Positions 39,393 through 63,445 of a DNA stretch of 64,000 nt are shown here, in pieces; the stretch's first letter is position 1, and each line of letters begins with the position of its first letter. Below the pieces are notes generated by a model. The model did not search any database. It was not told where the DNA came from and worked only from the letters and a program-made list of their open reading frames with translations. A program made the position numbers and the translations under genes. The stretch is taken from NCBI GenBank assembly GCA_965230095.1, contig OZ245946.1, positions 517,210 to 581,209 of the forward strand, read 5' to 3'. This DNA comes from Balneola sp. Lineage in GTDB: Bacteria; Bacteroidota; Rhodothermia; Balneolales; Balneolaceae.

Positions 39393-39422
39393 CCTTCAGG
39401 CTCGGCGGTAAGGACGTGAAAT
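39393..39422 (+). repeat. Direct repeat A, copy 2
   Basis: CCTTCAGGCTCGGCGGTAAGGACGTGAAAT. Confidence 0.75.
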
Positions 39423-39535
39423 TTTATATAAGACTATGGAATACATTTCATTTTTAAAGAATATTCTTTCCTTCAAAACAAACCCTATATCAATCTTTGA
39501 AAGATTCCATAATTAAAGCTATATTTAGAATCTAG

Positions 39536-39566
39536 GTGAGCGTCGTGAAGGCACTCGCTTTTTTTT
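39536..39566 (+). terminator. Terminator-like hairpin in the rimP leader
   Basis: GTGAGCGTC-GTGAA-GGCACTCGC followed by T8, ending 19 nt before the rimP ATG. Confidence 0.6.
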
Positions 39567-39584
39567 GTCCTTATTTCCCGGATC

Positions 39585-40046
39585 ATGCAACTTGATACCA
39601 TACAAAAAATTAAAGATTTAGCGGCTCCTTTAGTAGAGTCTAAGGATCTCTTTGTCGTTGATATAGAACATAAAACCGGTAGTGGTTTGAATGAAGTATG
39701 GCTCTATTTAGACGCACAAGATCGCGGAGTTAATCTGGATGAATGTGCAGATATCAGCAAAGAATTAGGTTTTTTGATAGAAGCACACGAGTTATTTGAA
39801 AAGAAATATCGACTAAATGTTTCGTCACCGGGACTTAGCAGACCACTTTCTGATGTGCGTCAGTACAAAAAGAATCAGGGTCGTAAAGCTAAGGTCAAAT
39901 TCAAGAAAGAAGATGAATATGATAAAACTGAAGGAACCATAGTTGGTGTGGATGAAAACGGAATTATGCTAGAAGACCAAAACGGGAAATCTGTTAAGGT
40001 TTTATTCGACGATATAAAGGAAGCAAAGATCGTCCCAAATATTTAA
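39585..40046 (+). CDS. rimP: Ribosome maturation factor RimP
   Basis: VNLDECADISKEL, YRLNVSSPGLSRPL; first gene of the rimP-nusA-infB operon. Confidence 0.96.
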   Translation: MQLDTIQKIKDLAAPLVESKDLFVVDIEHKTGSGLNEVWLYLDAQDRGVNLDECADISKELGFLIEAHELFEKKYRLNVSSPGLSRPLSDVRQYKKNQGRKAKVKFKKEDEYDKTEGTIVGVDENGIMLEDQNGKSVKVLFDDIKEAKIVPNI

Positions 40047-40066
40047 TACATACTTAAGCAACGCTG

Positions 40067-41323
40067 ATGCAGAACGACTTATCAAAACAAATTATCTCCT
40101 CATTTGCAGAAATCGCAAAAGAAAAAGGAATTGATCGCGATCTATTGCTGTCAATATTAGAGGATGTGTTCCGCACAATGATTCGTAAAACGTACGAAAC
40201 TGATGACGCATTCTCAGTGATTTTGAATGCAGACAGAGGAGAGCTGCAGATATTACACATTCAGGAAGTGGTTCCTAAAGAAGAACTTACCGATGAAGTT
40301 GCTGAAATTACCTTGGAAGATGCTAAAAAGATCGATCCGGATATTGAGCTGTATGATGAGCTTGCTCAGGAAGTTCAGATCGTAGACTTTGGTCGTAGAG
40401 CAGTAATGATGGCTCGCCAACAACTGGCACAACGAATTCGTGAGATCGAAAAAGACAATATTTACGATGATTACACGGATCGAGTAGGTGAAATTATTTT
40501 AGGTGATGTGTATCAGGTTCGCCAGAACAAAGATATTTTAGTAAATCATAACGGTGTGGAATTAATGCTTCCAAAAAATGAGCAGATTTACAAAGACCGT
40601 TACAGAAAAGGTGATACCATCCGTGCAGTAGTGACCGGCGTTCACATGCGAAATGGTAACCCTACAGTTATTATCTCCAGAACTTCTGAGTTATTTTTGG
40701 AAAGACTATTTGAAAATGAAATTCCTGAAGTATTTGACGGAATCATAGATTTAGTGAAAATTGCACGCTCTCCTGGTGATCGTTCAAAAGTAGCGGTTAT
40801 TTCACATGATGAAAGAGTTGATCCTGTAGGAGCTTGTGTTGGAATGAAGGGAATTAGAATTCATGCCATTGTACGTGAGCTTCAGAATGAAAATATTGAT
40901 GTAATTAATTACACTGCTGATAAACATGAGTTTATCAAAAGAGCACTACAGCCTGCTGAAGTTCTTAAAGTAGAACTGGATGAAGAAGGTAAGAACGCAA
41001 GTGTATTGGTTCCTGCTGACGAAGTATCAAAAGCGATTGGTAAAGGTGGGGTTAACATCCGTCTGGCATCAAAATTGGCAGAATGCGAAATTGATGTATA
41101 TCGTGAGGTTGAGGAAGAAGATGATATTGATTTAGCAGAATTTGAGGAAGATTTTGGTAAAGAAGCGATTGAAGCTTTACATGAAATTGGCTGTGATACT
41201 GCACGTGCTGTACTTGAATTGAATGCAGATGAGTTAGTTAGCAGAACAAAAGAAGTTATAGATGAAGAACTCGCTAATAAGATCATGGATATGATCAGAT
41301 ATGAGTTCGAAGACGAAGGTTAA
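40067..41323 (+). CDS. nusA: Transcription factor NusA
   Basis: FGRRAVMMARQ, S1 and KH domains, ARSPGDRSKVAV, DPVGACVG, AIGKGGVN. Confidence 0.98.
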   Translation: MQNDLSKQIISSFAEIAKEKGIDRDLLLSILEDVFRTMIRKTYETDDAFSVILNADRGELQILHIQEVVPKEELTDEVAEITLEDAKKIDPDIELYDELAQEVQIVDFGRRAVMMARQQLAQRIREIEKDNIYDDYTDRVGEIILGDVYQVRQNKDILVNHNGVELMLPKNEQIYKDRYRKGDTIRAVVTGVHMRNGNPTVIISRTSELFLERLFENEIPEVFDGIIDLVKIARSPGDRSKVAVISHDERVDPVGACVGMKGIRIHAIVRELQNENIDVINYTADKHEFIKRALQPAEVLKVELDEEGKNASVLVPADEVSKAIGKGGVNIRLASKLAECEIDVYREVEEEDDIDLAEFEEDFGKEAIEALHEIGCDTARAVLELNADELVSRTKEVIDEELANKIMDMIRYEFEDEG

Positions 41324-41382
41324 TTTGCAGGGAATAACATCCGCTTTGTAATTTAACTTTCAATAGACACAAAAAATCATAT

Positions 41383-44178
41383 ATGTCCATAAATAGACCA
41401 AAACCATTATTTAAAGTTGCTTCAGAGTTTAATGTAACAACACAAACCATTGTTGATGCATTAAGTGAAGATTTTGAAGTTGCTAACCGACCAAATTTCA
41501 AAATAACGCCGGAAATGTATTCGGTTTTGGAAGGGATCTATGGCGAAGATAAAGCTAAGAGCCAGGATCATGAACGATCTCGTGAAGAGTACGAAAATCG
41601 TCGCAGTTCTATAATGGATCAAAGAAATGAAAGTGTAACTCTTGATTCGCTTGAACCAATTGATGAGTCACTGGGTTTAGAACCAGAAGACGAACCTCCA
41701 ACAGAGGAAAAAGAAGAAGAACTTCCTCTGGAGCCGGTTGAAGAAGAACCTGAAGGTCAGGAAACAGAAGAGGAAGAACAGGCTGAACTGGAAGAACCGG
41801 TTGCCGAGGAAGAAAGCGAAGAAACATCAGCTGAATCAGAAGATGCTAAAGAAGCTGAAGTAAAAGAGGAGCAAAGCGAACCTGAATCTGCATCTGAAAA
41901 AGAAGAAAAAACAGAAGAACAGAACGAATCTGATGATGAAGAATCTGTAGAAAACGAAAGTGAAGACGCTCATGAAGATCAGGATGAAGTTGAGGATGAG
42001 GATGATGAGGAAGACGATGAGCCTGAAGAGAAGGAAACCATCAAAGGTAAAGCAGATAAACTAAAAGGGACAAAAGTATTAGGCAAAACATCCTTCACTA
42101 ATGACTTAACAGGCGCTACCAAAAAACGGAAGAAAAGAAAGCGAAGAAAAGACAGAAATGATTCCAAGCAATCTACTTCTAAGAAAGATGACGACAAGAA
42201 ATCAGCAAAAAATAAAACGCGTAAAAAACCGAAAGGAAAATCCAATACCAAAACTGAGGTAGATGAGATCGATGTGGATCGCATGATGCGCGAGACCATG
42301 CAGAAGATCCAGGGTAATTCCAATGTGGGTAGTAAGCGTGGAAAAAGAAGACGCCAACGTAAAGAAGAAAGAGAGGAAGAACTGCAACAACAGCAGGAAA
42401 TGGAAGAAATGGAAGCTGGTGTAATTGAAGTCACCGAATTCATTACAGCCAATGATCTTGCTGAAGAACTGGAAGTTGGTGTAAACGATATTATTTCTGC
42501 ATGCATGAGTATTGGGTTGATGATAACCATCAATCAAAGATTGGATGCAGGTACCATTGAATTAGTTTCCGAAGAGTTTGGGAAAGAAGTTAAGTTCATT
42601 GACGCTGAGGAAATGGACGAAGAACTTGAAATCGAGGAAGACAATCCTGAAGATCTGGAAGATCGGGCTCCGATTATTACCGTAATGGGACACGTAGACC
42701 ACGGTAAAACCTCTTTGCTCGATTATATTCGTGAAGAAAGAGTAGCTGAAGGCGAGGCCGGTGGCATTACTCAGCATGTTGGTGCTTATTCGGTAATGCA
42801 TAGCGGAAAGCAAATTACATTCCTTGATACTCCGGGTCACGAAGCATTTACAGCAATGCGTTCCCGTGGTGCTCAGGCAACAGATATTGTAATTCTTGTA
42901 GTTGCTGCGGATGATTCCGTGATGCCTCAAACCATAGAGGCCATAAATCACGCAAAAGCAGCAGGTGTACCGATGGTGGTCGCTATTAATAAGATCGATA
43001 AACCTGGCTCTACACCTGATAAAATCAAACAGCAGTTATCAGAACATGAGGTAATTGTTGAAGACTGGGGTGGACAAACTCAATTTGCACTTGTTTCTGC
43101 AAAAACTGGTCAGGGAATTGATGAGTTATTAGAAAAAGTACTTATCGAAGCTGAACTACAGGAACTGAAAGCTAATCCTGATCGTAGAGCAAACGGTGTG
43201 GTACTTGAAGCCCGTTTAGATAAAGGAAAAGGTATTATCGCGAATGTTCTTGTACAAGGTGGTACACTAAAAGTTGGAGATCCATTTGTTGCAGGACCTT
43301 GTTTTGGTAGAGTTCGTGCAATGGAAAACGACCGTGGCGAAAGAATTAAAGAAGCAGGACCGGCAACTCCAGTTCAGTTAATGGGATTTGATGAAATGCC
43401 ACAGGCTGGAGATTCTTTAGTAGTTGCTGAGGATGAGAAAACAGCTAAAGATGTGGCTAGTCAGCGTAATCAAATTCGTCGTGAGCAGGCAATGAGAAAA
43501 ACCAAGCATATGACACTTGATGACCTTTCAAGAAGATTGGCACTCGGAGAAGTATCTGAGTTGAATATCATCATTAAAGCCGATGTGGATGGTTCTATTG
43601 AGGCTCTTTCAGGTTCATTGCAGAAAATCAGTAATGACGAAGTCGCTGTTAATATCATCCATACCGGTGCGGGAGCAATTTCTGAATCTGATGTATTATT
43701 AGCATCAGCTTCTGATGCTATTATTATCGGTTTCCAGGTACGACCTACTCAACAGGCTCGTAAACTTGCTGAAACCGAAGAAATTGATATCAGATTGTTC
43801 TCTGTTATTTACGATGCCGTTGATGAAGTTAAAGATGCTCTTGAAGGTCTACTATCTCCGGAATTGAAAGAAAAGATTCTAGGTAATGTTGAAGTTCGTG
43901 AGATCTTCAAAGTTTCTAAAGTTGGTACTATTGCCGGTTGTTATGTACTGGATGGTAAAATTGACCGAAATAATCCAGTTCGTATTATCCGTGAAGGCGT
44001 TGTTATTTATGATGGCGCTATTGGGGCCTTGAAACGTTTCAAAGATGATGTTAAAGAAGTAGCTGCCGGATACGAGTGTGGTATCAGCATTCAGAATTAC
44101 AACGATATTAAAGTTGGTGATAATTTTGAGAGCTACAAGATCACCGAAGAAAAACGTACGCTGGAAGACGCAAATTAA
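41383..44178 (+). CDS. infB: Translation initiation factor IF-2
   Basis: GHVDHGKT, GGITQH, DTPGHEAF, NKID; long acidic N-terminal region. Confidence 0.99.
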   Translation: MSINRPKPLFKVASEFNVTTQTIVDALSEDFEVANRPNFKITPEMYSVLEGIYGEDKAKSQDHERSREEYENRRSSIMDQRNESVTLDSLEPIDESLGLEPEDEPPTEEKEEELPLEPVEEEPEGQETEEEEQAELEEPVAEEESEETSAESEDAKEAEVKEEQSEPESASEKEEKTEEQNESDDEESVENESEDAHEDQDEVEDEDDEEDDEPEEKETIKGKADKLKGTKVLGKTSFTNDLTGATKKRKKRKRRKDRNDSKQSTSKKDDDKKSAKNKTRKKPKGKSNTKTEVDEIDVDRMMRETMQKIQGNSNVGSKRGKRRRQRKEEREEELQQQQEMEEMEAGVIEVTEFITANDLAEELEVGVNDIISACMSIGLMITINQRLDAGTIELVSEEFGKEVKFIDAEEMDEELEIEEDNPEDLEDRAPIITVMGHVDHGKTSLLDYIREERVAEGEAGGITQHVGAYSVMHSGKQITFLDTPGHEAFTAMRSRGAQATDIVILVVAADDSVMPQTIEAINHAKAAGVPMVVAINKIDKPGSTPDKIKQQLSEHEVIVEDWGGQTQFALVSAKTGQGIDELLEKVLIEAELQELKANPDRRANGVVLEARLDKGKGIIANVLVQGGTLKVGDPFVAGPCFGRVRAMENDRGERIKEAGPATPVQLMGFDEMPQAGDSLVVAEDEKTAKDVASQRNQIRREQAMRKTKHMTLDDLSRRLALGEVSELNIIIKADVDGSIEALSGSLQKISNDEVAVNIIHTGAGAISESDVLLASASDAIIIGFQVRPTQQARKLAETEEIDIRLFSVIYDAVDEVKDALEGLLSPELKEKILGNVEVREIFKVSKVGTIAGCYVLDGKIDRNNPVRIIREGVVIYDGAIGALKRFKDDVKEVAAGYECGISIQNYNDIKVGDNFESYKITEEKRTLEDAN

Positions 44179-44195
44179 GTAAAGAAGAGGTTTAA

Positions 44196-44573
44196 ATGAG
44201 TATTAGAACAGAACGCTTAGGCGGTGTTCTAAAACGTGATTTAGGTGAAATTCTTCAACGAGAATACCAACCTGTGGGGACGTTTATCACCGTTACAAAA
44301 GTATTGATGACAGACGACCTTTCTATAGCCAGAGTGTATCTGAGCGTATTTGCTCCGGGTAGAGATGAAAAAGCAATTTATCAGCATCTGGATGAACATA
44401 TAGATGACATCAGGCATACTTTAGCCGGTAAGATCAGGCATCAGGTACGTAAAATTCCTGAATTGCACTTTTACGTAGATGATACCGCTGAGTACGTGAA
44501 TAAAATCGAAAAACTCTTCGATAAAGTAGATCAGCAACCAAAAGCACCCACCGAAGACGACGAAGAGAGTTAA
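44196..44573 (+). CDS. rbfA: Ribosome-binding factor A
   Basis: DLSIARVYLS, VRKIPELHFYVD. Confidence 0.96.
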   Translation: MSIRTERLGGVLKRDLGEILQREYQPVGTFITVTKVLMTDDLSIARVYLSVFAPGRDEKAIYQHLDEHIDDIRHTLAGKIRHQVRKIPELHFYVDDTAEYVNKIEKLFDKVDQQPKAPTEDDEES

Positions 44574-44574
44574 A

Positions 44575-45312
44575 ATGGCGAAAGCCCTGCCTCTGGGAGA
44601 GATTCCTGTATTTGACGATGATAACCTGCCAAGTCCGGATTTTGATTTTGGGACAGCATCAATTCTGCTTATAAATAAACCACAAACATGGACCAGTTTT
44701 GATGTGGTCAGATATGTTCGCCGAAGATTGCGGACAAAAAAGGTGGGTCATGCAGGTACACTGGATCCAATGGCAACCGGTTTATTGATTTTATGTTCCG
44801 GAAGGGCAACAAAATCTATTTCTCAGCTTCAGGAAATGTCTAAAACTTATATTGGTGAAATCACTTTTGGCGGATCAACTCCTACCTATGACGCTGATTC
44901 AGAGGTTGATGAAACTGCACCAACCGAGCATATTACCATAGATAAAATAGAGAAAGTGCTTGAAGAGCATTTCAATGGAGAAATCTCTCAGGTTCCTCCC
45001 GTGTATTCCGCATTAAAAGTTGGAGGTAAGCGATCTTATGAATTAGCCAGAAGAGGAAAGGCAGTAGCATTAGCTGCCAGACAAGTTACAATTCATTCTC
45101 ATCAAATTATCAGTTTCAAAAGCAATAAACTGTTGATCAGCATAAATTGTAGTAAGGGAACCTATATCAGATCTATTGCACATGATCTTGGAAAATTATT
45201 AAACTCATTGGCACATTTATCGGGTTTAGAAAGAACTGCAATTGGTGAGTTTACATCAAAGAAAGCGTTATCTCCCCATAAAATAGATGAATTGTTAAAT
45301 GCAAAATACTGA
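44575..45312 (+). CDS. truB: tRNA pseudouridine(55) synthase
   Basis: INKPQTWTSFDVV, KVGHAGTLDPMATG, CSKGTYIRS. Confidence 0.97.
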   Translation: MAKALPLGEIPVFDDDNLPSPDFDFGTASILLINKPQTWTSFDVVRYVRRRLRTKKVGHAGTLDPMATGLLILCSGRATKSISQLQEMSKTYIGEITFGGSTPTYDADSEVDETAPTEHITIDKIEKVLEEHFNGEISQVPPVYSALKVGGKRSYELARRGKAVALAARQVTIHSHQIISFKSNKLLISINCSKGTYIRSIAHDLGKLLNSLAHLSGLERTAIGEFTSKKALSPHKIDELLNAKY

Positions 45313-46240
45313 ACTAATATTTCTTAACGATATTGAACGAGTTGAAAACTCGGTTGTAACAGTTGGTACTTTTGATGGGGTACATTTAGGACATAAAGCT
45401 CTGATCGAAACAGTAGTCAAAAAGGCAAAAGAAAGAGATGCACGAAGCGTAGTCATTTCTTTTGATCCTCATCCAAGAGATATAATTAATCCCGGAAGTG
45501 CAGGGATTAAACAACTTACTACGATTCAGGAACGGCGGGAAATACTGGAAGAAATTGGTATCGATGTTCTGTTGATCATTCCTTTTACAAGAGATTTTTC
45601 ATTGTTGAGTTCTGAAGAGTTTGTGAAAAAGATCGTTTTTGAAAGGGTGGGAGTGAGTGAATTTGTTATTGGTTATGATCACCACTTTGGTAAAGATCGT
45701 ACCGGAACTATTGAAACCGTTGAGAATCTTGGAAAGGAATTGGGTTTTGATGCTTTTGTAGTTTCAAAAAGAGAAATGGGTACAGTTACGGTAAGTAGTA
45801 CTACCATTAGAAGAGAACTTTCAGAAGAAGGAAATGTAGAGCAGGCAGCAAAGCTTTTAGGGCGTAAATACTTGCTCAATGGAATTGTAATTCACGGTGA
45901 TAAAAGAGGGAGAAAGATTGGGTTTCCCACCGCTAATTTGAAAGCTGAACATCCAAATAAAGTAATTCCAAAAAATGGTGTTTATGCTGTGAGGGCAAGA
46001 GTTGGTGGGAATTGGTATGGTGGGATGATGAACATTGGACACAGACCTACTTTTGATAAAATTGAGTTGAGATTGGAAGTTAATATCTTTGAATTCGATG
46101 AAGATATTTATGGGCAAACTATTCAGGTTCGCTTCCATAAGAGATTAAGAGATGAAGTAAAGTTTAATGGAGTTGAGGAATTAGTTGAGCAACTGGGCAT
46201 GGATAAAGAATCAGCTTTAAAAGCTTTAAACGAAAAGTAG
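45299..46240 (+). CDS. ribF: Bifunctional riboflavin kinase/FAD synthetase
   Basis: GTFDGVHLGH, GYDHHFG, VSSTTIR, GRKIGFPTAN, NIGHRPTF. Confidence 0.97.
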   Translation: MQNTELIFLNDIERVENSVVTVGTFDGVHLGHKALIETVVKKAKERDARSVVISFDPHPRDIINPGSAGIKQLTTIQERREILEEIGIDVLLIIPFTRDFSLLSSEEFVKKIVFERVGVSEFVIGYDHHFGKDRTGTIETVENLGKELGFDAFVVSKREMGTVTVSSTTIRRELSEEGNVEQAAKLLGRKYLLNGIVIHGDKRGRKIGFPTANLKAEHPNKVIPKNGVYAVRARVGGNWYGGMMNIGHRPTFDKIELRLEVNIFEFDEDIYGQTIQVRFHKRLRDEVKFNGVEELVEQLGMDKESALKALNEK

Positions 46241-46330
46241 TAAATAAATCTGATTATCAACTTTTAACAGCACCAGAACTCGTTTGTAAGTAAATAGGGA
46301 TGTATTCAACCATGAACCAAACCTGAGATC

Positions 46331-46852
46331 ATGAAATTACTTACTACTTTACTATTTTTATGCTTTTCAACAATGGCTTATTCACAAGTAATTGATATGA
46401 GTGAGCTGATTGCCGATATGGAAAGAAACAAGGTAATGTCTCTTGCTTATGTTGATGCTATGCCTGCCGAAAAATTTAACTATCAGCCAAATGAAGATGT
46501 TCGAACCTATGCACAGCAGTTCTTACATATTTCACAAGGACTAATTGGTTTGTCAGCAAACGGAACAGGAGCAGAACCTATATTTAAAGGCGAAAACCTG
46601 GAAGCAACTGAGGCATATCAAACAAAAGCTGAAGTAAAAAGAATAGTCTCAGCAAGCTATGATTTTGCTATTAAAAGCATGAAAGAAATGGATATGTCAG
46701 AGCTCAATGAAGTGGTTCAACGGGGACAATTTAATGTAACCAGACTCGGCTGGATCAATAAAGCAATGGAACACAATACCCATCACAAAGGCCAATGTGC
46801 GGTGTATTTAAGAATGAATGGGATTACCCCACCTCAGTTTCAATTGTTCTAG
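46331..46852 (+). CDS. Exported DinB-family protein
   Basis: Signal peptide; AMPAEKFNYQP, QFLHI, HNTHHKGQCAVYLRMNGITPP. Confidence 0.85.
   Translation: MKLLTTLLFLCFSTMAYSQVIDMSELIADMERNKVMSLAYVDAMPAEKFNYQPNEDVRTYAQQFLHISQGLIGLSANGTGAEPIFKGENLEATEAYQTKAEVKRIVSASYDFAIKSMKEMDMSELNEVVQRGQFNVTRLGWINKAMEHNTHHKGQCAVYLRMNGITPPQFQLF
46656..46852 (+). repeat. Direct repeat B, copy 1 (3' 197 bp of the DinB-family gene)
   Basis: Matches 49418..49614; 151-bp perfect core 46695..46845 = 49457..49607. Confidence 0.95.
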
Positions 46853-46970
46853 GTTTTGTTATCGATAATTGTCGATCTTATTACTGTTAATTTTGATTTT
46901 AAAGCTAATTAAATTTGTAAAACCTGTTCTAATTATTTAATCTCCTGAGGAAAAATAAAGGGGTAATAAA

Positions 46971-49355
46971 ATGAGTGATTTTTGTAGATTAATATCTGTT
47001 CTGGATGATGCTGTTTTAACAAATACTTGTGGGGCTATACCCGGAGCAGATATCAGTAAAAGTGGTAATTATATATATGTATCTAGCAAGTATGAAAGTG
47101 GAGCAGATTACATACAGGTTTTTCCTATTGATATAGCTTCTCACTCTATAATTCATCAAACATCTGCACAACTAGAAGTTAATCACGAAGCGCATTCTGT
47201 TGCTGCTTCAAAAAATAATGATTCCTTGTTTTTTGTCTCGGGAACAGGCTCTGTGAAATGTTATCAATTTAATAAGGTTGGAAAAAAAGTAGATGAAGTT
47301 AATTCGCAACCAATAAAAGGCCCTATTTCAAAAGTAAAAACGTATTTGACTGTAGCTCATGAAGTTGTTTATGTACTCTGTTCTTGGTCAATGAACCCTA
47401 CTACGCTGGGAGGCAATCCAGCAACATTAAATACTTATTATATAGGAGTAGACGGAAAGCTTTCTCAAATTGGAAGTATTTCCGTTCCTATCGCAAATAG
47501 CACTAGTTTTGATGTTTCTGATGATGGGTATATCTATATAGGTGGTACTTCTGTTCATAATGGTCAGGCTGTACTTCTTGCCTACCAATTTAATACAAAT
47601 TCAGGGATTGTATCTGGGGACACCGTTGCTCAAACTTCGCCTGGTGCTTTGTTCGGTCATAATGTAAGTTCGATTGCAGTCAGTCCGGTCGATTATTCTA
47701 TTGTTCTTTCAACGAAAAATGTTAGTAATAATCAATTTATTTATCGTTTCAGGTTCAATAAAAGTTCTGAACAACTTGAACAAATTGGGGATAAATATGA
47801 TCCGAAATCGCCTGTTATAAATGGATTAGCTTTTTTGCCTTCGAATGAAAGTAATGATCAAAACGTATTGTACGGCACATACAGTAATGCTTTTTGTTGT
47901 TTTACGATACCTGTTAATCAGGGTATCACTGGAATTACTACATTTGAAGCTGTCAACCAACCAGATGAAATTATCATTCGGGAAGGAAAAGCGATAACAG
48001 TTTGTTATTCAGACCCAAATTTTCATGGCTGTTTTGGATTTTATGAATTGTTGAATTTTACAAATCCGGTATTATCTGTTACTGACACACCGTTTGGATT
48101 TAGTTTTTCTATAGACTTTGAGAAACTTGGTCATAGCTGGTCGGGAATAATTAAAATATTGAATTCCGACAATCAGCTTTTTGATTCTATAAGCATGTCA
48201 GAAGTTGGTACTTATTATGACTATAACCTGGTAAATCCAGGAGAAGCATTTACTGGTTCGGCAATAATAGAAGTAACTAATACTTCTACAGGTAATACTC
48301 TTACAAGCAAGCCAGTTTCTATAAGTTATTCGCCATTAGCTATTCAATTAAGTTTATCTGCTGGAATTGATGATTTAGAAGCCAATGCAACTATAAATGG
48401 TACACTTCCTACGGGTTCGGCAGTTGGCTTCTTTGTTCAATTTGAAGGTGACCAAAGAACGTTCAAAAATATAGTTGCGCCAACTATAAAAAATAACCAA
48501 ACTAGCTGGGCATTTAGTCAGAGTGGGCTAAACAGTCGTTTTGGGAATGACAGATCGGGAATGATTACGGTATATGCTTTAATCAGAAGTTCAGGAAAAT
48601 ACAATCAACCGGATTCTCCTGAAAACGCCAAGGGACAACTTGTTTCAGTATCCAAAGGGTATAGTTACAGTTCCCCAATCGCTCGTTTCGATATTTTTGA
48701 AAATGATAATGTCAATCCACCAACTTTCTTTTTTAACATTTATGTTAGCGATGCATTCAATTCATTTGCTTCAAAAAATGCAAAGAACGAAGTGGAATTT
48801 ACATTAGAATACTGGGGAGATAATCCTCAGCAGATTAGTACACTCGAATTACCTACTGTTCTGAATTCTAAGCCAAATACAAATGATTATGTAGGGGCTC
48901 CAACAATACCGGAAACCAAACTTCCGCTCACGGCAAGGTCCGGGAGGCTTAAATACACCAATAATGGAATTACTATTTACAGTACAAATGAAATTAATTA
49001 TTTAGCACCATTTACACTTAGTTATGCTTTTGTTCAGGCAAACAACCCAACCATTCAAATTATGGCAGATCCTAGGATTCATTTCAACAAATATAAAACC
49101 AATGATAACTTCCAGTTTCAGTTGTATTACTGGAACGATGGGGCTTCCAGAAACGAAAACAAAAAGCTGACGGTAGTTACTAATGGATCAGTCTTTAGGC
49201 GGGAATATGTAGTTAATAACAATGAACTTCCCTTATCTAGAGAGCCATTCAGGGCTGGTAATACTTACTGGATTCAAGCAGCATACATAAACAATACTGT
49301 ATCACCAGCTCAAACAATTTATGGAAAGGCACAGCAAATGATTGTACCTCTTTAA
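46971..49355 (+). CDS. 794-aa hypothetical protein, probable beta-propeller plus about four beta-sandwich domains
   Basis: Long intact ORF, Ser/Asn/Thr-rich beta composition, no N-terminal signal peptide; fold is inferred. Confidence 0.7.
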   Translation: MSDFCRLISVLDDAVLTNTCGAIPGADISKSGNYIYVSSKYESGADYIQVFPIDIASHSIIHQTSAQLEVNHEAHSVAASKNNDSLFFVSGTGSVKCYQFNKVGKKVDEVNSQPIKGPISKVKTYLTVAHEVVYVLCSWSMNPTTLGGNPATLNTYYIGVDGKLSQIGSISVPIANSTSFDVSDDGYIYIGGTSVHNGQAVLLAYQFNTNSGIVSGDTVAQTSPGALFGHNVSSIAVSPVDYSIVLSTKNVSNNQFIYRFRFNKSSEQLEQIGDKYDPKSPVINGLAFLPSNESNDQNVLYGTYSNAFCCFTIPVNQGITGITTFEAVNQPDEIIIREGKAITVCYSDPNFHGCFGFYELLNFTNPVLSVTDTPFGFSFSIDFEKLGHSWSGIIKILNSDNQLFDSISMSEVGTYYDYNLVNPGEAFTGSAIIEVTNTSTGNTLTSKPVSISYSPLAIQLSLSAGIDDLEANATINGTLPTGSAVGFFVQFEGDQRTFKNIVAPTIKNNQTSWAFSQSGLNSRFGNDRSGMITVYALIRSSGKYNQPDSPENAKGQLVSVSKGYSYSSPIARFDIFENDNVNPPTFFFNIYVSDAFNSFASKNAKNEVEFTLEYWGDNPQQISTLELPTVLNSKPNTNDYVGAPTIPETKLPLTARSGRLKYTNNGITIYSTNEINYLAPFTLSYAFVQANNPTIQIMADPRIHFNKYKTNDNFQFQLYYWNDGASRNENKKLTVVTNGSVFRREYVVNNNELPLSREPFRAGNTYWIQAAYINNTVSPAQTIYGKAQQMIVPL

Positions 49356-49417
49356 GGTAATTATTGATACTAAAAAATAGCTACTTATAATAGAATATGA
49401 TGCAATTTTAGTGAAAT

Positions 49418-49614
49418 GCTATTACTTTGCACTTAAAAGCATGAAAGAAATGGATGTGTCAGAGCTCAATGAAGTGGTTCAACGGGGACAATTTAATGTA
49501 ACCAGACTCGGCTGGATCAATAAAGCAATGGAACACAATACCCATCACAAAGGCCAATGTGCGGTGTATTTAAGAATGAATGGGATTACCCCACCTCAGT
49601 TTCAATTATTTTAG
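49418..49614 (+). pseudogene. Duplicated 3' fragment of the DinB-family gene (direct repeat B, copy 2)
   Basis: Encodes the same C-terminal ~62 aa and stop; no matching 5' half. Confidence 0.92.
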
Positions 49615-49748
49615 CTTGTGGAAACAGATATTGTCATTCGAGATTTAATGATCCTGTACTTAAATAAAACTCAATAACCTTGATTGAAACCATTGTTTAG
49701 AGATATATTTTAATTACAAGAAACATTGTTGCTTATCATTAAAAAGCT

Positions 49749-49756
49749 TATCTTTG
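49749..49756 (+). promoter_or_regulatory. Bacteroidetes-type -7 promoter element upstream of rpsO
   Basis: TATCTTTG about 40 nt before the ATG. Confidence 0.6.
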
Positions 49757-49796
49757 GAATCTATATTAAAACGAGTTTAAGAATAACTGAATTGTA

Positions 49797-50066
49797 ATGA
49801 GCATTACTGCAGAAGAAAAAAAAGATATTTTCAAAAAACACGGCGGGGAAGAAGCCAATACCGGTACAACTGAAGGGCAAATTGCCCTTTTTACGCACCG
49901 TATCAATCATCTTACTGAGCATCTGAAAACGAATCAGAAAGACCACGCTTCTCGTCGCGGATTATTGAAGTTAGTAGGTAAGCGTCGTCGTTTGCTTAAC
50001 TACCTGATGAAGAACGACATTCAAAAATACAGAGAGCTTATCAAAGAGCTTGGTATTAGAAAATAA
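49797..50066 (+). CDS. rpsO: 30S ribosomal protein S15
   Basis: [35 protein letters not shown]. Confidence 0.98.
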
Positions 50067-50069
50067 TTT

Positions 50070-50098
50070 AAAGGCTCCACCTATCTGGAGCCTTTTTC
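50070..50098 (+). terminator. Intrinsic terminator between rpsO and pnp
   Basis: AAAGGCTCCA-CCTATC-TGGAGCCTTT followed by T residues. Confidence 0.8.
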
Positions 50099-50188
50099 AA
50101 TTCTCCCACTTAATTATCTATTTGTGTAAAAGCCAATCTTTAAGGTTAGTGTGGGATAAAGCAATAAACAAAAGACAAAAAGAAATAA

Positions 50189-52312
50189 ATGAAAGAAGAT
50201 TTTAGAAGTATAGAATTTGCACCGGGAAAGGTGCTATCTGTAGAAACAGGACGAATAGCTAAACAAGCAGACGGTTCTGTTGTAGTTAAAATGGGCGATA
50301 CTATGGTACTTTGTACTGCAGTTAGCGCAAAAGAACCAAAGCCGGGTCAGGATTTTTTCCCGTTAACGGTTGATCATAAAGAAAGTTTTTCTGCTGCGGG
50401 ACGTTTTCCCGGCGGATTTATGAAAAGAGAAGGACGCTCTAACGAAAAAGAGATTCTTTCCAGCAGATTAATTGACAGAGTTTTAAGACCATTATTCCCA
50501 AAAGGGTATGTATGTGATACACAGGTTATTTCCAGCGTAATTTCATCTGATGATGAAAACGATGGTGATGTATTAGGAGCAGTTGGTGCTTCACTTGCTA
50601 TTCACTTATCAGATATTCCTTTTGCCGGACCTATGGCAGAAGTTAGAGTTGGTAGAGTGGATGATGAATTCATCATCAACCCAACAGTTACTGAATTAAA
50701 GGACAGCGATATCGATATGGTTGTTGGTGGTACTGATGATAGTATCCTGATGATTGAAGGTGAGATGCACGAAATCTCAGAAACAGAAATGTTGAACGCA
50801 ATCAAAGCTGCTCATGATGCAATTAAGAAGCTTTGTGATTTCCAGAACGAGCTACGTAACGAGTTAGGGAAAGAAAAAAGAGAATTTGTACCTGCTGAAG
50901 TTGATGAAAGCTTGGAGTCTAAAGTAAAAGATCTTGCTGAATCAGCAATTGCTGATATCGTAAATATCGGTCTTGGTAAAGAAGAGTACAATCAGAAGAT
51001 CAAAGAAGCTAAAGATGAAGCATTCGCAAAGCTTGAAGAAGAACTTGCTGACGATGAGGAAGCTTCTGATAAACTTTCTGATGCTAAGAAAATTCTGGGA
51101 AGCATTGAAAAAGAAGCTCTCAGAAATATGATCCTTGAAAAAGGTCGTAGAATTGATGGTCGAGCAACTGACGAGATCAGAGATATCTGGACTCAGGTTG
51201 GTTATATGCCAAGAACGCACGGTTCATCAATATTTACAAGAGGGGAAACTCAGGCATTGGTTTCTGCTACTTTAGGAACTCGCCGTGATGAGCAAAGTGT
51301 AGACACTTTATTTGATCAGGAAGCCAAGCAGTTTTATCTGCACTATAGTTTCCCTCCATATTCTGTTGGAGAAGCAGGATTTTTAAGAGGACCTGGAAGA
51401 AGAGAAATTGGTCACGGTCATTTAGCTGAGCGTTCTTTAAGAATGATGATGCCTACTTTCGAAGAATTCGGATATGTAATTCGTGTTATTTCTGATATTA
51501 CTGAATCAAACGGTTCGTCTTCAATGGCTTCTGTTTGTGGTGGTTCTATGGCACTTATGGATGCAGGTGTACCAATCAAGAAGCCGGTTGCAGGTATTGC
51601 AATGGGAATGATCGTTGGAAAAGATAACACTGCTATTCTTTCGGATATCCGTGGAGAAGAAGATTTCATGGGCGACATGGACTTCAAGACTGCAGGAACT
51701 TCAGACGGGATCACTGCTTGCCAGATGGACATGAAAGTTCAGGGAATCAGCTTTGAAACAATCGAAGAAGCTCTGGAACAAGCTCACAAAGGAAGAATGC
51801 ATATTCTTGGTGAAATGGCTAAGACTATTTCATCTCCGAAAGAAAGTATTTCTCAATATGCTCCTCAGTTCCTGAGAATGGAAATCGACGGCAGCGATAT
51901 TGGTGCTGTGATTGGACCTGGTGGAAAAGTGATTCAAACACTTCAGAAAGAAACCGGAACTGAAATTATCATTGAAGAAGATGATAATGGTAAAGGTCAG
52001 ATCACGATTTCAGCTAACGATCTTGATAAAGCTGAAGAAGCCAAGAAGAGAATTAAAATGATTGTTGGTCATCTTGAAGAAGGTGCTACCTACAAAGGTG
52101 TGGTTAAGTCGATCAAAGACTTTGGCGCTTTTGTAGAAATTGCTCCGGGAAGAGATGGTCTTCTTCATATTTCAGAAATCGATCACAAACGAGTTGAAAA
52201 AGTAGAAGACTACTTGTCACTTGGCGATGAGATCGAAGTTAAACTGCTTAAGATTGAGCATGGAAATAAACTTCGTTTATCAAAAAAAGCATTGATCGAA
52301 AAAGAAGATTAA
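50189..52312 (+). CDS. pnp: Polyribonucleotide nucleotidyltransferase
   Basis: DFFPLTVD, SRLIDRVLRPLF, RREIGHG, ESNGSSSMASVCG, KH and S1 domains. Confidence 0.99.
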   Translation: MKEDFRSIEFAPGKVLSVETGRIAKQADGSVVVKMGDTMVLCTAVSAKEPKPGQDFFPLTVDHKESFSAAGRFPGGFMKREGRSNEKEILSSRLIDRVLRPLFPKGYVCDTQVISSVISSDDENDGDVLGAVGASLAIHLSDIPFAGPMAEVRVGRVDDEFIINPTVTELKDSDIDMVVGGTDDSILMIEGEMHEISETEMLNAIKAAHDAIKKLCDFQNELRNELGKEKREFVPAEVDESLESKVKDLAESAIADIVNIGLGKEEYNQKIKEAKDEAFAKLEEELADDEEASDKLSDAKKILGSIEKEALRNMILEKGRRIDGRATDEIRDIWTQVGYMPRTHGSSIFTRGETQALVSATLGTRRDEQSVDTLFDQEAKQFYLHYSFPPYSVGEAGFLRGPGRREIGHGHLAERSLRMMMPTFEEFGYVIRVISDITESNGSSSMASVCGGSMALMDAGVPIKKPVAGIAMGMIVGKDNTAILSDIRGEEDFMGDMDFKTAGTSDGITACQMDMKVQGISFETIEEALEQAHKGRMHILGEMAKTISSPKESISQYAPQFLRMEIDGSDIGAVIGPGGKVIQTLQKETGTEIIIEEDDNGKGQITISANDLDKAEEAKKRIKMIVGHLEEGATYKGVVKSIKDFGAFVEIAPGRDGLLHISEIDHKRVEKVEDYLSLGDEIEVKLLKIEHGNKLRLSKKALIEKED

Positions 52313-52320
52313 ACGAACTA

Positions 52321-52377
52321 GTTGCGATGCTCTGCGTCGTAACTTACTTGCTCCAACGCAGAGCATTGGAGCAAGTA
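52321..52377. repeat. REP-like hairpin doublet with complementary loops
   Basis: GTTGCGA-TGCTCTGCG-TCGTAAC then TACTTGCTCCAA-CGCAGAGCA-TTGGAGCAAGTA. Confidence 0.7.
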
Positions 52378-52405
52378 TTGTTCTAATTTTTGGCAAATAA
52401 AAAGT

Positions 52406-52437
52406 GGCACCGTTCAGCAATGAGCCGTGCCTTTTTT
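52406..52437 (+). terminator. Intrinsic terminator downstream of pnp
   Basis: GGCACCGTTCA-GCAA-TGAGCCGTGCC followed by T6. Confidence 0.7.
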
Positions 52438-52485
52438 ATGTAGAATATTCAATAAACCAATACTGATTCTACCTTACAGGCTTTG

Positions 52486-52493
52486 TATATTTG
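52486..52493 (+). promoter_or_regulatory. Bacteroidetes-type -7 promoter element upstream of the M16 peptidase gene
   Basis: TATATTTG. Confidence 0.45.
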
Positions 52494-52515
52494 GTTTGTA
52501 TAATGACCTTTAGTT

Positions 52516-52602
52516 GTCATCCTGAGGATACTTGCGAAGGATCTTCACATAGATTTACGAGTATATAAATTTTTGAAGATTCTTCGCTACGCTCTGAATG
52601 AC
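52516..52602. repeat. REPIN/MITE-like palindromic element, copy 1
   Basis: GTCATCCTGAG...GCGAAGGATCTTCA [spacer] TGAAGATTCTTCGC...CTCTGAATGAC. Confidence 0.75.
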
Positions 52603-52629
52603 TTTTAATTAATAAGAACAACAACCTTA

Positions 52630-53880
52630 ATGGAAAACCTTAAAGAAATAGATTTTGTAACCAAGACCACGCTTCCTAATGGTCTTAGAATTGTAACGGA
52701 AAAAATAGAAAGTGTTAAAAGCATTTCTGTAGGAATTTGGGTTAAAACCGGATCCAGAAATGAAACTCCCAAACAAGCGGGTATCACGCACTTTCTGGAA
52801 CATATGTTGTTCAAAGGTACCGACAAGAGATCGGCGTACGATATAGCACTTAGTATGGAATCAGTGGGCGGATATCTGAATGCTTTTACTTCATCTGAAT
52901 ACACCTGTTACTTCGCACGTTGTGTGAATACTCAAATTGAAAGAGCTTTAGATGTACTTTCAGATATGGTCCTGAATCCAAGCTTTCCGGAAGAGGAAGT
53001 AGAAAAAGAGAAGAAAGTTGTTATCGAAGAGATGAAAATGTACAGAGATTCTCCGGATGATTATCTCTTTGAAGAGTATAATACCAGAATGTTTCAGGGA
53101 CATGAATTAGGTCGTCCTGTATTAGGATTGGAGGAAACTGTTTCATCATTTACCAGAGAAGATCTGTATGAGTACATGGAAGAAAGATACCGTGCAGGGA
53201 ATTTACTTATCTCCGTGGCCGGAAATGTTGAGCATGAAGACGTTGTAAAATTGGTTTCAAATTATTTGGGGGATCTTCCTGCTCTTGAAGTTGAAAATGA
53301 TGACCAGCCGTTAAACGAGTTTGACACATCTAAACTGGAACTCACAAAACCGATAGAACAAACTCATTACATTCTGGGAAGACGAGGATTGAACTTTGAT
53401 CATGAAGATAAGTATCTGCTTCTTTTAGCAAATACGATTTTAGGGGGAGGAATGAGTTCTCGTCTTCACCAAAATGTGAGGGAAAAATATGGATATTGTT
53501 ATTCCATTCAGACCTTTACTCAATCTTACACTGATTCCGGAATGTGGGGAGTTTATGTTGGAACCGATCAGGAGTATGTTGAACATGTACATGAATTGGT
53601 GGTTGCGGAACTTAATAAGATCAGCGAAGAATTAGTGCCGCAGAAAGAACTTGAAGAGGCTAAATCTCAGTTAAAAGGAAAACTATTGCTTTCTCAGGAA
53701 AATACCAGCAACAGAATGATGAGATTAGCAAAAAGTGAATTATATTTCGATCGCTTTGTAACACTGGATGAACTGGTTGAAAATATCGATACAGTTACAT
53801 CCGAGCAGATCTTAAAGTTTTCAAAAGAGTTCTTTGATCAAAACTATTTCATGGAAGCCGTTTTGACCCCTGAAGGGTAA
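52630..53880 (+). CDS. M16 family (pitrilysin-like) zinc peptidase
   Basis: GITHFLEHMLFKGT (HxxEH), LNAFTS, LGGGMSSRLHQNVREKYG. Confidence 0.94.
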   Translation: MENLKEIDFVTKTTLPNGLRIVTEKIESVKSISVGIWVKTGSRNETPKQAGITHFLEHMLFKGTDKRSAYDIALSMESVGGYLNAFTSSEYTCYFARCVNTQIERALDVLSDMVLNPSFPEEEVEKEKKVVIEEMKMYRDSPDDYLFEEYNTRMFQGHELGRPVLGLEETVSSFTREDLYEYMEERYRAGNLLISVAGNVEHEDVVKLVSNYLGDLPALEVENDDQPLNEFDTSKLELTKPIEQTHYILGRRGLNFDHEDKYLLLLANTILGGGMSSRLHQNVREKYGYCYSIQTFTQSYTDSGMWGVYVGTDQEYVEHVHELVVAELNKISEELVPQKELEEAKSQLKGKLLLSQENTSNRMMRLAKSELYFDRFVTLDELVENIDTVTSEQILKFSKEFFDQNYFMEAVLTPEG

Positions 53881-53893
53881 TGATAAATTATGG

Positions 53894-54021
53894 ATGATGA
53901 ATTTTGAATTTGGGTTTGTCACTTTGAGTGTAAATGAGAAGTCTAAAGATCATGTTGGTTTCGAGTTAATCTTTAGATGTCTCTCTACATTCGACATGAC
54001 AAAGCATTCAAAATTCATCAT
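53894..54021. repeat. Nested palindrome: heptamer-type 16-bp inverted repeat enclosing a REPIN-like element
   Basis: ATGATGAATTTTGAAT (53894-909) / ATTCAAAATTCATCAT (54006-21); inner TTTGTCA...TCTAAAGAT / ATCTTTAGA...TGACAAA (53915-54003). Confidence 0.75.
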
Positions 54022-54043
54022 TAAAAATTCAAAATTTTAGAAA

Positions 54044-55540
54044 ATGATCTACATCAACAAATTAAGTGAACACGTTGATAAGCAAGTAACTTTAAAAGGC
54101 TGGGTATATAATTACCGAAGCAGCGGAAGCCTTGTATTTATTGAAATGAGAGACGGAACCGGCCTAACTCAATGTGTGGTTGCCAAAGATGATGTTTCAG
54201 AATCAGATTGGGAAGCAGCTACGTCACTCCGACAGGAAAGCTCTCTCGAAATTACAGGAACTGTAAAAGCTGATGACAGAAGTATTGGCGGACATGAAAT
54301 ACATGTTTCTGAAGTAAACGTGGTACAGGTCGCGGAAGATTATCCGATCACACCAAAAGAACATGGTGTTGAGTTTTTAATGAACAATCGTCATTTGTGG
54401 TTACGTAGCCAGCGACAATGGGCGGCAATGCGTGTTCGAAATGAAATTATTTTTGCGATTCATACCTTCTTCCAAGAGCGAAATTTCGTGCAAATGGATT
54501 CCCCGATATTTACCAGTAACGCTGCTGAAGGGAGTACCACACTTTTTGAGACGGATTATTTTGAAGAAAAAGCTTATCTCGCTCAAACCGGTCAGTTGTA
54601 TGGAGAAGCAATGGCCATGGCTCACGGGTTGATCTATACATTCGGACCAACATTCCGTGCTGAGAAGTCTAAAACCCGACGACATCTTACCGAGTTCTGG
54701 ATGATAGAACCCGAAATGGCGTATTACGATCTTGATATGAATATGGATCTTGCAGAGGATATGATCCGGTTCATCACTGCTAAAGTGGTTGAAAAGAGAA
54801 AAAGTGAATTAGAAATTCTTGAAAGAGATATTTCTAAACTCGAGAAAGTAGCTGAAAATCCTTTCCAGAGAATTACCTATTCTGAAGCTGTTGAACAATT
54901 GAAGAGCAAAGAAACAGCTGATATGCTTGATCAGATGGTAGAAGATCGTAAGCAGGAAGAGAAAGACTTAAAAAAGGAGAGAGAAGAGATCAAAAAGGAA
55001 CACGGTTCTGCTAAAAAATGGAGAAAGAAGCAGATCGATCAGCGAGTGATCGAAATTGGTCAACGTTTAGATCAGATCGAAGAAGATTACAGAAACATTC
55101 CGCAGTGGAAAGAATCTGCTCAAAATTTTGAATGGGGCAATGATTTTGGCGGTAGCGACGAAACCGTGCTTATGCTTCAGCAAGAAGTTCCATTGATGGT
55201 TCACAGATGGCCGGCAGAGATCAAAGCATTCTATATGAAACGAGATCCTGAAGATGAACGACTGGTTCTTGGTGTGGATGTTCTTGCTCCGGAAGGTTAT
55301 GGCGAGATCATTGGTGGAAGTCAGCGTGAAGACGATCTGGAATTTTTAGAAAATCATATCGAAAAACACGACTTACCCATGGATGTATTCGGTTGGTATT
55401 TAGATCTGCGAAGATTCGGCTCTGTACCACACTCAGGCTTTGGTTTGGGACTTGAACGAACAGTTGCATGGTTATGTGGATTATCACACGTCAGAGAGAC
55501 GATTCCGTTTCCTAGGATGATGGGTCGCTTAAAACCGTAG
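54044..55540 (+). CDS. asnS: Asparagine--tRNA ligase with a charged internal insertion
   Basis: [68 protein letters not shown]. Confidence 0.97.
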
Positions 55541-55578
55541 GTTTTAAGAAATCTCAAAGTTCAAATAGCAAATTTCAA
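55523..55578 (+). repeat. Direct repeat C, copy 1 (last codons of asnS plus downstream heptamers)
   Basis: 51/56 identical to 56514..56569. Confidence 0.9.
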
Positions 55579-55639
55579 AAGAGTGATTCTCTTGTAGGTC
55601 TTATAAAACATTTAATATTCATTATGTAGAAAATATAAT

Positions 55640-56514
55640 ATGAGAAAGTTAATTCGGTGGTACATTCTTTTTTTTCTATTAATAAGTACTCAAAGTGTAT
55701 TAGGACAAAAGTATCAAGCAATTCTTGATTTAGAGGTTGGCAAAACATATAGCCTAAAAATTGAAGACAAACATTCTATAAATCTTGAGTATGAAGCTAA
55801 CTTAAATAAAAGTGATCTTATATTTAATTATGATTTACATTTTAAAGTTATCAATAATAAAGAAAACGAATACATAACTGAGGTACACTTTAGCAATTTT
55901 AGTTACAAAGAATCGAATACGCTATTTCAATCCTCTACTGATATTAAAAGTCCATTATTTGGTTTAGTTAATAAAAAGTTCACTGTGATTTTAAGCAAAT
56001 ACGGAGGTATCAATAATATAGAAGGACTACAACATATTGTTAATTCTCTAAATAGAACACAGTCTTTAAATGAAGATTGGTATGATGAATATTTGTCAGA
56101 TAGAATTCTTTTAGAAATACTTTTTTCTACATACCACCGTATCCAATAGCACCTGTAGCCAATGAAGTTCCTTGGTTACACCTTACCGGAATAGATGTTC
56201 AACTTGGATTTGTAAAATTAGAGTTAGAAGGAGTTCAAGAATATGATAATGACTCAGGTTATATCATTAGCAACAAAGGTAAGGCAATTGTACCAGATAG
56301 AATACTTTCTTTAGATACGAACAAGAGATTTTCCTATAATTCCATGACCATAGAGACAGATGGTTATTATCAACTTTCAAATTCTGGATGGCCTAAAAGT
56401 GGTAAAACAAACATTAAATCTATTTCCTCAATAGATTTGAAAATCACTGGAGAATCTGATAATACTGGGAGTTTTATATATTCAAGAAGTGTGGATTATT
56501 TGGAAAACTTTTAG
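55640..56514 (+). pseudogene. Frameshifted exported protein gene (DUF6263-like), about 291 aa if repaired
   Basis: ORF 55640..56149 with signal peptide; a second frame runs 129 stop-free codons from 56125 (FYIPPYPIAPVANEVPW...) to TAG 56514; the frames join at the T6 run 56121-56126. Confidence 0.7.
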
Positions 56515-56569
56515 GACGCTTAAAACAATAGGTTTTAAGAAATCTCAAATTTCAAACAGCAAATTTCAA
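56514..56569 (+). repeat. Direct repeat C, copy 2
   Basis: GGACGCTTAAAACAATAGGTTTTAAGAAATCTCAAATTTCAAACAGCAAATTTCAA; reads GRLKQ* versus asnS GRLKP*. Confidence 0.9.
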
Positions 56570-61535: not shown

Positions 61536-61562
61536 TAAATTTCGTGCTTTAGTGAATTAGTG
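61536..61562 (+). repeat. Direct repeat D, copy 1
   Basis: TAAATTTCGTGCTTTAGTGAATTAGTG, 27/27 identical to 63419..63445. Confidence 0.92.
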
Positions 61563-61659
61563 GCTTCTAAATATTACAGCCTAAAATCTAAAAGATTAAT
61601 TTAGTTTAGTATGACATAGACTGTCACCCTTAGATGATACACTAAAGAAAAAGTAGCAA

Positions 61660-62706: not shown

Positions 62707-62716
62707 AAGGGAAATT

Positions 62717-63367: not shown

Positions 63368-63418
63368 AACTACTATTCTTTCAACAGGTTTTTATAGCTC
63401 AAATAAATTTTAGCATGC

Positions 63419-63445
63419 TAAATTTCGTGCTTTAGTGAATTAGTG
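63419..63445 (+). repeat. Direct repeat D, copy 2
   Basis: Exact copy of 61536..61562. Confidence 0.92.

Follow-up and report, generated by a model that had tools for sequence, protein, structure and literature searches.

A probable homology-driven gain of an orphan gene at the 3' end of dinB in Balneola sp., followed by gene conversion between the two gene ends

How did a single gene come to lie between a dinB-family gene and a second copy of that gene's own 3' end? The question is raised by the genome of Balneola sp. (assembly GCA_965230095.1), in which we analyzed a window of 64,000 nt (contig OZ245946.1, positions 517,210 to 581,209; coordinates below are those of the window unless another sequence is named). 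The gene order at this locus is infB, rbfA, truB, ribF, the DinB-family gene (hereafter dinB), a 794-aa open reading frame (ORF794), a DinB 3' fragment, rpsO and pnp (Table 1). The DinB-family gene encodes a small Bacillus-type DinB/YfiT-like protein (PF05163) and not DNA polymerase IV; the intact protein scores 41.3 bits against Pfam PF05163 (cut-off 23) and the 3' fragment 31.3 bits. The protein sequence of RpsO, on the other side of the fragment, is identical across many species. The answer that we consider probable is a homology-driven (RecA-type) integration of a diverged dinB end together with its cargo, followed by concerted evolution of the two dinB ends.

A direct-repeat search of the window identified the two copies, here termed A (upstream) and B (downstream), as 46656-46873 and 49418-49635 (218 nt, 93% identity, offset 2762 nt), and no further copy occurs in the 3,453,984-nt single-contig genome. 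Pairwise alignment from 46671/49433 to the stop codons gave exactly 3 mismatches in 182 nt, at 46694 (A/G), 46846 (G/A) and 46849 (C/T), of which the first is non-synonymous (Met/Val) and the other two are synonymous. The 15 nt immediately 5' of 46671/49433 match at 11 positions, and the same alignment found no similarity between the copies further upstream. Between the copies lies a single large ORF (46971-49355). A preliminary description of this DNA, made from the letters alone, had reported a repeat at 46656-46852 and 49418-49614 with three mismatches in 182, the synonymous nature of the two mismatches near the stop codon, and one large ORF between the copies just upstream of rpsO-pnp; all of these were borne out by the repeat search and the alignment.

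The same description had proposed that the locus holds an insertion and that both copies be compared with the dinB end of an insert-free relative. Such a relative was reached through a protein that is 94% identical to the DinB of the window (P0016). This relative is L025, which belongs to a 3.49-Mb contig of the same species with ~98% identity to the window on either side of the locus. In L025 ribF, dinB and rpsO follow one another uninterrupted, i.e., the site is empty, and in the more distant species G014 dinB also lies directly before rpsO. The 182-nt dinB-rpsO spacer of L025 is identical to window 49615-49796 at 181 of 182 positions, and L025 10328-10522 aligns to copy A as well as to copy B. 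The only close relative of ORF794 among 5.8 billion proteins, the near-identical P0002, is encoded on L021, a 2742-nt contig that Logan assembled from a different sample (SRR14610221) and that corresponds to window 46730-49470 at 98.8% and spans both the junction from copy A into the insert and that from the insert into copy B. The window genome itself is a single 3.45-Mb contig in two versions, both with the locus. Given the empty site in L025 and the presence of both junctions on the L021 contig, the ribF-dinB-rpsO locus of the window holds a true insertion and is not a mis-assembly, in agreement with the earlier proposal.

The extreme 3' ends of the copies bear on which of them came with the insert. 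In both carriers copy A ends with TTG TTC TAG and runs on into insert sequence, whereas copy B and the empty site end with TTA TTT TAG followed by the native spacer. Both insert-bearing strains have G at 46846 and C at 46849; A at 46822 and G at 46831 are found in the L021 strain only. These four A-specific differences, all within the last 31 nt, are synonymous third-position changes, and the TTG TTC ending is also found in the sister-species contigs L022, L026 and L027. Because the changes are synonymous and the ending is shared with the sister species, the insert brought no less than the final 7-31 nt of a diverged, functional dinB from another lineage. The same synonymous, sister-species-shared changes at the end of copy A speak against damage at the junction and lead us to reject a pure target-site duplication. 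Copy B and the spacer behind it are resident sequence, and the end of copy A is linked to the insert. Homology between A and B runs precisely to the stop codon and no further, which agrees with a donor whose dinB was followed by different DNA. The preliminary description had suggested that the insertion restored the 3' end of its target gene and that the mismatches could tell the incoming copy from the resident one. Both suggestions hold: dinB is intact with an insert-linked end, and the mismatches near the stop codon point to the end of copy A as incoming and to copy B with its spacer as resident.

Further analyses, in which window A, window B, the empty-site allele of L025 and the two partial copies of L021 were placed in one register, revealed that dinB is a mosaic of a divergent allele type (W) and the resident type (N), the latter as in conspecific L025. 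A W tract of 280 nt (46522-46801) differs from L025 at 48 positions (17%), 37 of them third codon positions, while dinB outside this tract and its flanks differ from L025 by <1%. In A coordinates, copy B has the resident state at 46663, 46669-70, 46694, 46846, 46849 and everything downstream, and the W type, shared with copy A, at every one of the 16 informative sites in 46695-46801; in its own coordinates it is N at 49425, 49431-49432, 49456, 49608 and 49611 and W at 49457-49563. Within 46695-46845 none of the 151 positions differs between A and B. Since this tract is flanked on both sides by resident-type markers, copy B is the resident 3' end overwritten by gene conversion from copy A along 107-151 nt (46695 to 46801-46845). 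The three A/B mismatches are the nearest unconverted markers beside the tract and not mutations that followed the duplication.

The second carrier gives a measure of age. The insert proper of the window differs from that of L021 by 17 substitutions and 1 indel in 2565 nt (~0.7%), whereas the repeat copies differ far more between the strains, copy A at 9 of 124 positions and copy B at 9 of 53 (7-17%), and both partial copies of L021 match the resident allele where the window is W. A and B of one genome thus resemble each other more closely than either resembles its counterpart in the other strain, the mark of concerted evolution, and the insertion is older than the split of the two carrier strains. 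The insertion had earlier been called recent. This did not stand, for the insert is common to two strains, with ~0.7% divergence between their inserts, and the near-identity of the copies is that of a gene-conversion tract flanked by resident-allele markers. The W and N alleles of dinB are both ~80% identical to outgroups, a comparison that did not decide which of them was imported. Along 39271-55524 the window shows patchy divergence from L025, mostly <1% with short blocks of 8-17%, which include 40300-40699, 41900-41999, 50800-50899, 51400-51999, 53800-53999, 54300-54599 and 55400-55499. The scatter of short divergent patches along both conspecific genomes indicates that short imports by homologous recombination with diverged relatives are frequent in this species.

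The DNA specific to the insert (46853-49417) consists of a 118-nt spacer, ORF794 and a 62-nt tail, and ORF794 is the only ORF of >=60 aa on its coding strand. No recombinase or transposase domain was detected in ORF794 with Pfam, PHROGs, PADLOC or NCBIfam, nor was any recombinase found in or beside the insert by ORF and profile scans. No tRNA or convincing terminal inverted repeat was found in the insert, no Rfam match to a structured RNA was obtained across 45500-50500, and the spacer (46853-46970) and the tail (49356-49417) had no homologue in any fetched locus. A sigma-70-like promoter match (TTGATA-16 nt-TATAAT, 11/12) at 49364-49391, in the tail, lies just 5' of the dinB remnant and is directed towards rpsO; promoter-like matches over the scanned region were no commoner than in shuffled sequence.

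ORF794 itself has very few relatives. No homologue was found in the genomes of 40 relatives, a word search of 5.8 billion proteins returned only the near-identical P0002, and a full HMMER scan of 1.84 billion representatives returned one remote homologue, P0063 (782 aa), which is 23-29% identical to ORF794 and collinear with it over the whole length. P0063 comes from a metagenome contig with 57% GC, where its gene has unrelated neighbours, and scans of metagenomes and species genomes with P0001 and P0063 gave no match. Between the two carrier strains, 10 of the 15 substitutions in ORF794 fall at third codon positions. Because of this bias and of the collinear remote homologue, ORF794 is taken to be a real gene, and it shows signs of purifying selection. 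Nothing significant was found for ORF794 in Pfam, PHROGs, PADLOC or NCBIfam. A single-sequence AlphaFold model was useless (pLDDT 32), and a three-sequence model was confident only for approximately residues 25-290, a beta-propeller, for which Foldseek returned only generic WD40/lactonase-type propellers. ORF794 is therefore described here as an orphan with a predicted N-terminal beta-propeller fold. The gene of P0063 (L043 9580-11928) likewise has accessory surroundings: ahead of it, the 3' end of a SnoaL_4 gene recurs over 86 nt with 88% identity (L043:1148-1233 / 9335-9420), that SnoaL_4 gene lies 8 kb upstream and adjoins a Y2-transposase gene, and a candidate tRNA gene was seen by eye 3' of the P0063 gene on the opposite strand.

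These observations can be arranged in a sequence of events. The ancestral arrangement in the species would have been ribF-dinB-spacer-rpsO. DNA of a related lineage, carrying a diverged, functional dinB end, a spacer and ORF794, would have entered and been integrated by the homologous recombination of the host, with dinB as the sole homology and with no dedicated recombinase. One possible route is that the fragment circularised and underwent a single, Campbell-type crossover; the other is homology-facilitated illegitimate recombination (HFIR), in which the non-homologous end would have been joined to the resident dinB ~195 nt before its stop codon. The outcome of both would be an intact, part-donor dinB (A), the cargo and a stranded resident 3' end (B). 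Later, A and B recombined with each other, and in the window strain a tract of A of 107-151 nt, itself of the divergent allele, overwrote B. In a variant of the HFIR route, the W tract would have entered with the insert, the crossover lying near 46522 and the illegitimate joint at ~46656; 134 nt of resident dinB (46522-46655) would then have been replaced, as in classical HFIR. General recombination is the best explanation because no recombinase was found, homology is confined to the end of a diverged gene, and the 49417/49418 junction is non-homologous.

The comparisons above establish that the site is empty in L025, that two strains carry the insert, that B and its spacer are resident, that A has a donor-type end and B a conversion tract, and that the insert lacks a recombinase. 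The donor and the route of entry, with the choice between single crossover and HFIR, are what we infer from this arrangement, and both routes fit the data. As in a Campbell-type integration, a 197-nt direct repeat flanks the insert and the left edge of copy B abuts unrelated insert sequence. Reciprocal donor/recipient chimaeras around one crossover point would be expected; the end of A is of donor type and the end of B is resident, but the left part of B is mostly resident too, and later conversions blur the pattern. The 2742-nt contig L021 ends inside the repeats, without the end overlap expected of a circular molecule. As in HFIR, dinB is the sole homology, and at the right junction similarity starts abruptly at 49418-49424 (GCTAT, then a mismatch). 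The net effect at the locus would be a replacement if the W tract came with the insert, which fits the deletion typical of HFIR, and otherwise a net duplication, which does not.

Several points weigh against an integration of this kind. No donor genome in which ORF794 follows dinB was found in the searches of relatives, proteins and metagenomes, and the donor is hypothetical. In L021, copy A has the resident state along 46729-46801 and copy B has private changes in its leftmost 23 nt, a mosaic that requires at least one further conversion or allelic exchange under either route. Classical HFIR deletes recipient DNA instead of duplicating it (PMC3240628). Finally, the W tract (46522-46801) may have arrived with the insert or separately. 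Non-homologous end joining is unlikely, as no Ku gene was found in the genome. A ComEC gene is present in the genome, which is a weak pointer to DNA uptake or competence.

The dinB locus does not stand alone in this genome. Self-comparison of the genome identified ~10 locus-specific, two-copy direct repeats of 27-237 nt that bracket segments of 1-8 kb. One of these loci, the LytTR locus G000:C1:3128430-3130227 (L045/L046), lies outside the window and is arranged as the dinB locus is: downstream of a LytTR response-regulator gene (G000:C1:3129487-3130227, minus strand) come a 208-aa cargo gene and a second regulator 3' end of 237 nt, with the similarity ending at a stop codon. The two LytTR copies are 88% identical, 22 of their 29 differences being at third codon positions, and no comparators for this locus were found in other species. 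The dinB locus would have resembled the LytTR locus before conversion. Locus-specific repeats of such different lengths fit homologous recombination rather than a site-specific enzyme.

Among the shorter repeats, two-copy repeats of 27-61 nt (90-100% identical) bracket segments of one or a few genes, often begin just behind the stop codon of the upstream gene and belong to no dispersed repeat family; examples are G000 C1:11306/15032, 2363004/2364131, 2395055/2396760, 3035108/3036133 and 3124222/3132139, and window 61536-63445. At 55523-56569 of the window, a 56-nt direct repeat (91% identical) brackets a ~1 kb cassette; the repeat consists of the last 15 nt of asnS, the stop codon and 38 nt downstream, and in L025 this site shows another asnS ending and another gene, of 353 aa (L025:16461-17522). 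The ribF-rpsO interval is likewise a hot spot of variable content across the genus (L019, L020, L023, L027, L033-L041). Its variants comprise a solitary dinB; a dinB with DUF1697, CDP-alcohol phosphatidyltransferase and unknown genes around it; a dinB between other unknown genes; and, where dinB is missing, a 147-aa gene on the opposite strand. The cargo around dinB in this interval differs in every species examined.

A more far-reaching reading is that the genome, perhaps the genus, hosts a class of recombinase-free cassettes, each with a "homology hook" that consists of a conserved host gene's 3' end. Recombination of the flanking copies would release them as small circles, and a RecA single crossover would bring them into other strains. 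We regard this as rather unlikely. If true, it would explain several of the one-gene cassettes with repeats of 27-237 nt at or behind gene ends (dinB, the LytTR regulator, asnS and others).

A different account takes the 2.76-kb unit for a minimal integrative element of the site-specific kind, whole or as a remnant, that is mobilised in trans by a recombinase whose gene lies elsewhere, targets the dinB coding sequence and carries a replacement 3' end. The model for such an element is provided by phage 21 and e14, which insert in the 3' part of icd and supply a mostly synonymous replacement end, the old end being left as a pseudogene fragment; both have an integrase gene of their own, and their recombination takes place within a short core at a fixed position. 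Like them, the dinB insert brings a substitute 3' end (markers 46822-46849) and has a corresponding empty site (L025, G014). The restoration of the gene by the element-side copy, the linkage of the two synonymous near-stop differences to the insert, the existence of the empty site and the repeats around other cassettes of the genome would all be accommodated. Unlike phage 21 and e14, however, the dinB insert has no recombinase gene in or beside it and no short core conserved between the carriers, the stretch shared in L021 lying elsewhere; the identical stretch is a conversion tract whose ends differ between strains. At other loci, moreover, the flanking repeats are locus-specific and vary from 27 to 237 nt, and the LytTR repeat is 12% diverged along its whole length, with an identical core of at most ~45 nt. 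A site-specific element is thus quite unlikely, and the term "att-like", applied to the repeat in the preliminary description, does not suit it: there is no recombinase, the repeat ends at a stop codon and the repeats of other cassettes range over 27-237 nt.

It could also be argued that dinB was duplicated in tandem, that the second copy lost its 5' two-thirds through insertion of ORF794 or decay, and that the empty-site strain lost the duplicate by recombination. The end structure would be the same, and since deletion between A and B regenerates a clean single gene, L025 alone cannot prove the direction of change. This history needs at least two events, however, and nothing of the 5' part of dinB is recognisable upstream of 49418; neither the synonymous donor-type end of copy A nor the unrelated spacer downstream of it is expected of resident DNA, and G014 as well as L025 has a single dinB directly before rpsO. 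We consider it very unlikely. That the two copies or the position of the insert were mis-joined can hardly be entertained, for although repeats can mislead assemblers, both versions of the single 3.45-Mb contig have the locus, the independent L021 contig spans the passages from the end of A into the insert and from the insert into B, and the copies have distinct flanking markers. The locus is no new mobile element; it displays, with unusual clarity, the ordinary gain of a gene through recombination.

Homology-driven integration of this kind has experimental and natural precedents. In an E. coli conjugation assay with one-sided homology, 56 of 60 integrants had duplicated part of the homologous segment; the duplications were 109-950 bp in 14 sequenced clones and were attributed to a single crossover of a re-circularised fragment, which was ten times commoner than true HFIR (PMC3240628). 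The dinB locus is similar in its one-sided homology, the lack of a dedicated recombinase and the direct duplication that flanks the insert (197 bp here). It differs in being a natural event with diverged homology, where the assay employed a laboratory plasmid with identical homology; the copies here would originally have been a donor and a resident allele, and a circular intermediate is only deduced. As PMC3240628 and PMC2884548 summarise it, HFIR is known in Acinetobacter, S. pneumoniae and P. stutzeri, is RecA-dependent and can add genes that have no homologue in the recipient. The dinB locus shares with HFIR the one homologous anchor and the one non-homologous junction with little or no microhomology; unlike in classical HFIR, whose products lack the recipient DNA between that anchor and that junction, the resident 3' end was kept, and the illegitimate joint would lie upstream of the end of the homology.

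HFIR has also been proposed for small variable segments in general (PMC2884548) and for displaced gene ends and orphan modules in rhs and type VI secretion system (T6SS) loci (PMC5361080). According to PMC5361080 and the references in it, C-terminal displacement in rhs/contact-dependent inhibition (CDI) loci and the displaced T6SS immunity genes of Vibrio cholerae involve a module that enters via conserved upstream sequence, while the former 3' end is pushed downstream and stays as an orphan fragment, as at dinB. The displaced tips in those systems are, in the same account, variable toxin domains with immunity genes whose diversity is selected (PMC5361080). In contrast, the displaced end described here is homologous to the new one, the anchor is of housekeeping type and the cargo is an unrelated orphan. 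The later history of the locus resembles the concerted evolution of nearby direct repeats by gene conversion, with a tract flanked by unconverted markers, and there is nothing unusual in it; the partners are a functional gene and a pseudogene fragment, and the tract measures a mere 107-151 nt.

Table 1. Features of the ribF-rpsO interval in the window, with the evidence or remarks for each.
Feature	Coordinates	Strand	Evidence or remarks
ribF (FAD synthetase/riboflavin kinase), conserved left flank	45299..46240	+	PF06574, PF01687; holds this position in every relative examined
Intact DinB-family gene, 173 aa, the anchor	46331..46852	+	PF05163/PF12867; orthologues 71-94% identical, same locus in relatives
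Divergent allele tract W within dinB	46522..46801	+	48 differences from the N allele of L025
Repeat copy A, 3' third of the intact gene including the TAG stop codon	46656..46852	+	Repeat search, alignment
Stretch of 151 nt identical in A and B, containing the conversion tract	46695..46845	+	Marker tables
Extreme 3' end of copy A with insert-linked synonymous markers, donor-derived	46822..46852	+	Marker table
Insert-specific spacer 5' of ORF794, 118 nt	46853..46970	+	Without homologue in fetched loci
ORF794, orphan cargo gene with a predicted N-terminal seven-bladed beta-propeller-like fold and a beta-rich remainder	46971..49355	+	Predicted structure; without profile-library match
Insert tail, 62 nt, ending at the non-homologous junction, with a promoter-like site inside	49356..49417	+	Sequence comparison
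Repeat copy B, displaced resident dinB 3' end (remnant)	49418..49614	+	67-aa ORF at 49411-49614
Resident dinB-rpsO spacer	49615..49796	+	181/182 identical to L025
rpsO, conserved right flank	49797..50066	+	PF00312

The dinB locus is a fresh instance of known processes, i.e., homology-driven capture and displacement of a gene end, and then gene conversion. It illustrates how a gene without a host homologue can be gained in nature through nothing more than general recombination and a short stretch of a conserved gene next to it, and the recognisable scar of such a gain is a displaced gene end. It also carries a caution, in that near-identical flanking repeats do not prove that an insertion is young; here gene conversion has reset the apparent age. 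The recurrence of repeat-bracketed cassettes in this genome merits a look at the population level, and such a survey in this marine genus could measure what share of the flexible gene pool enters by this route.

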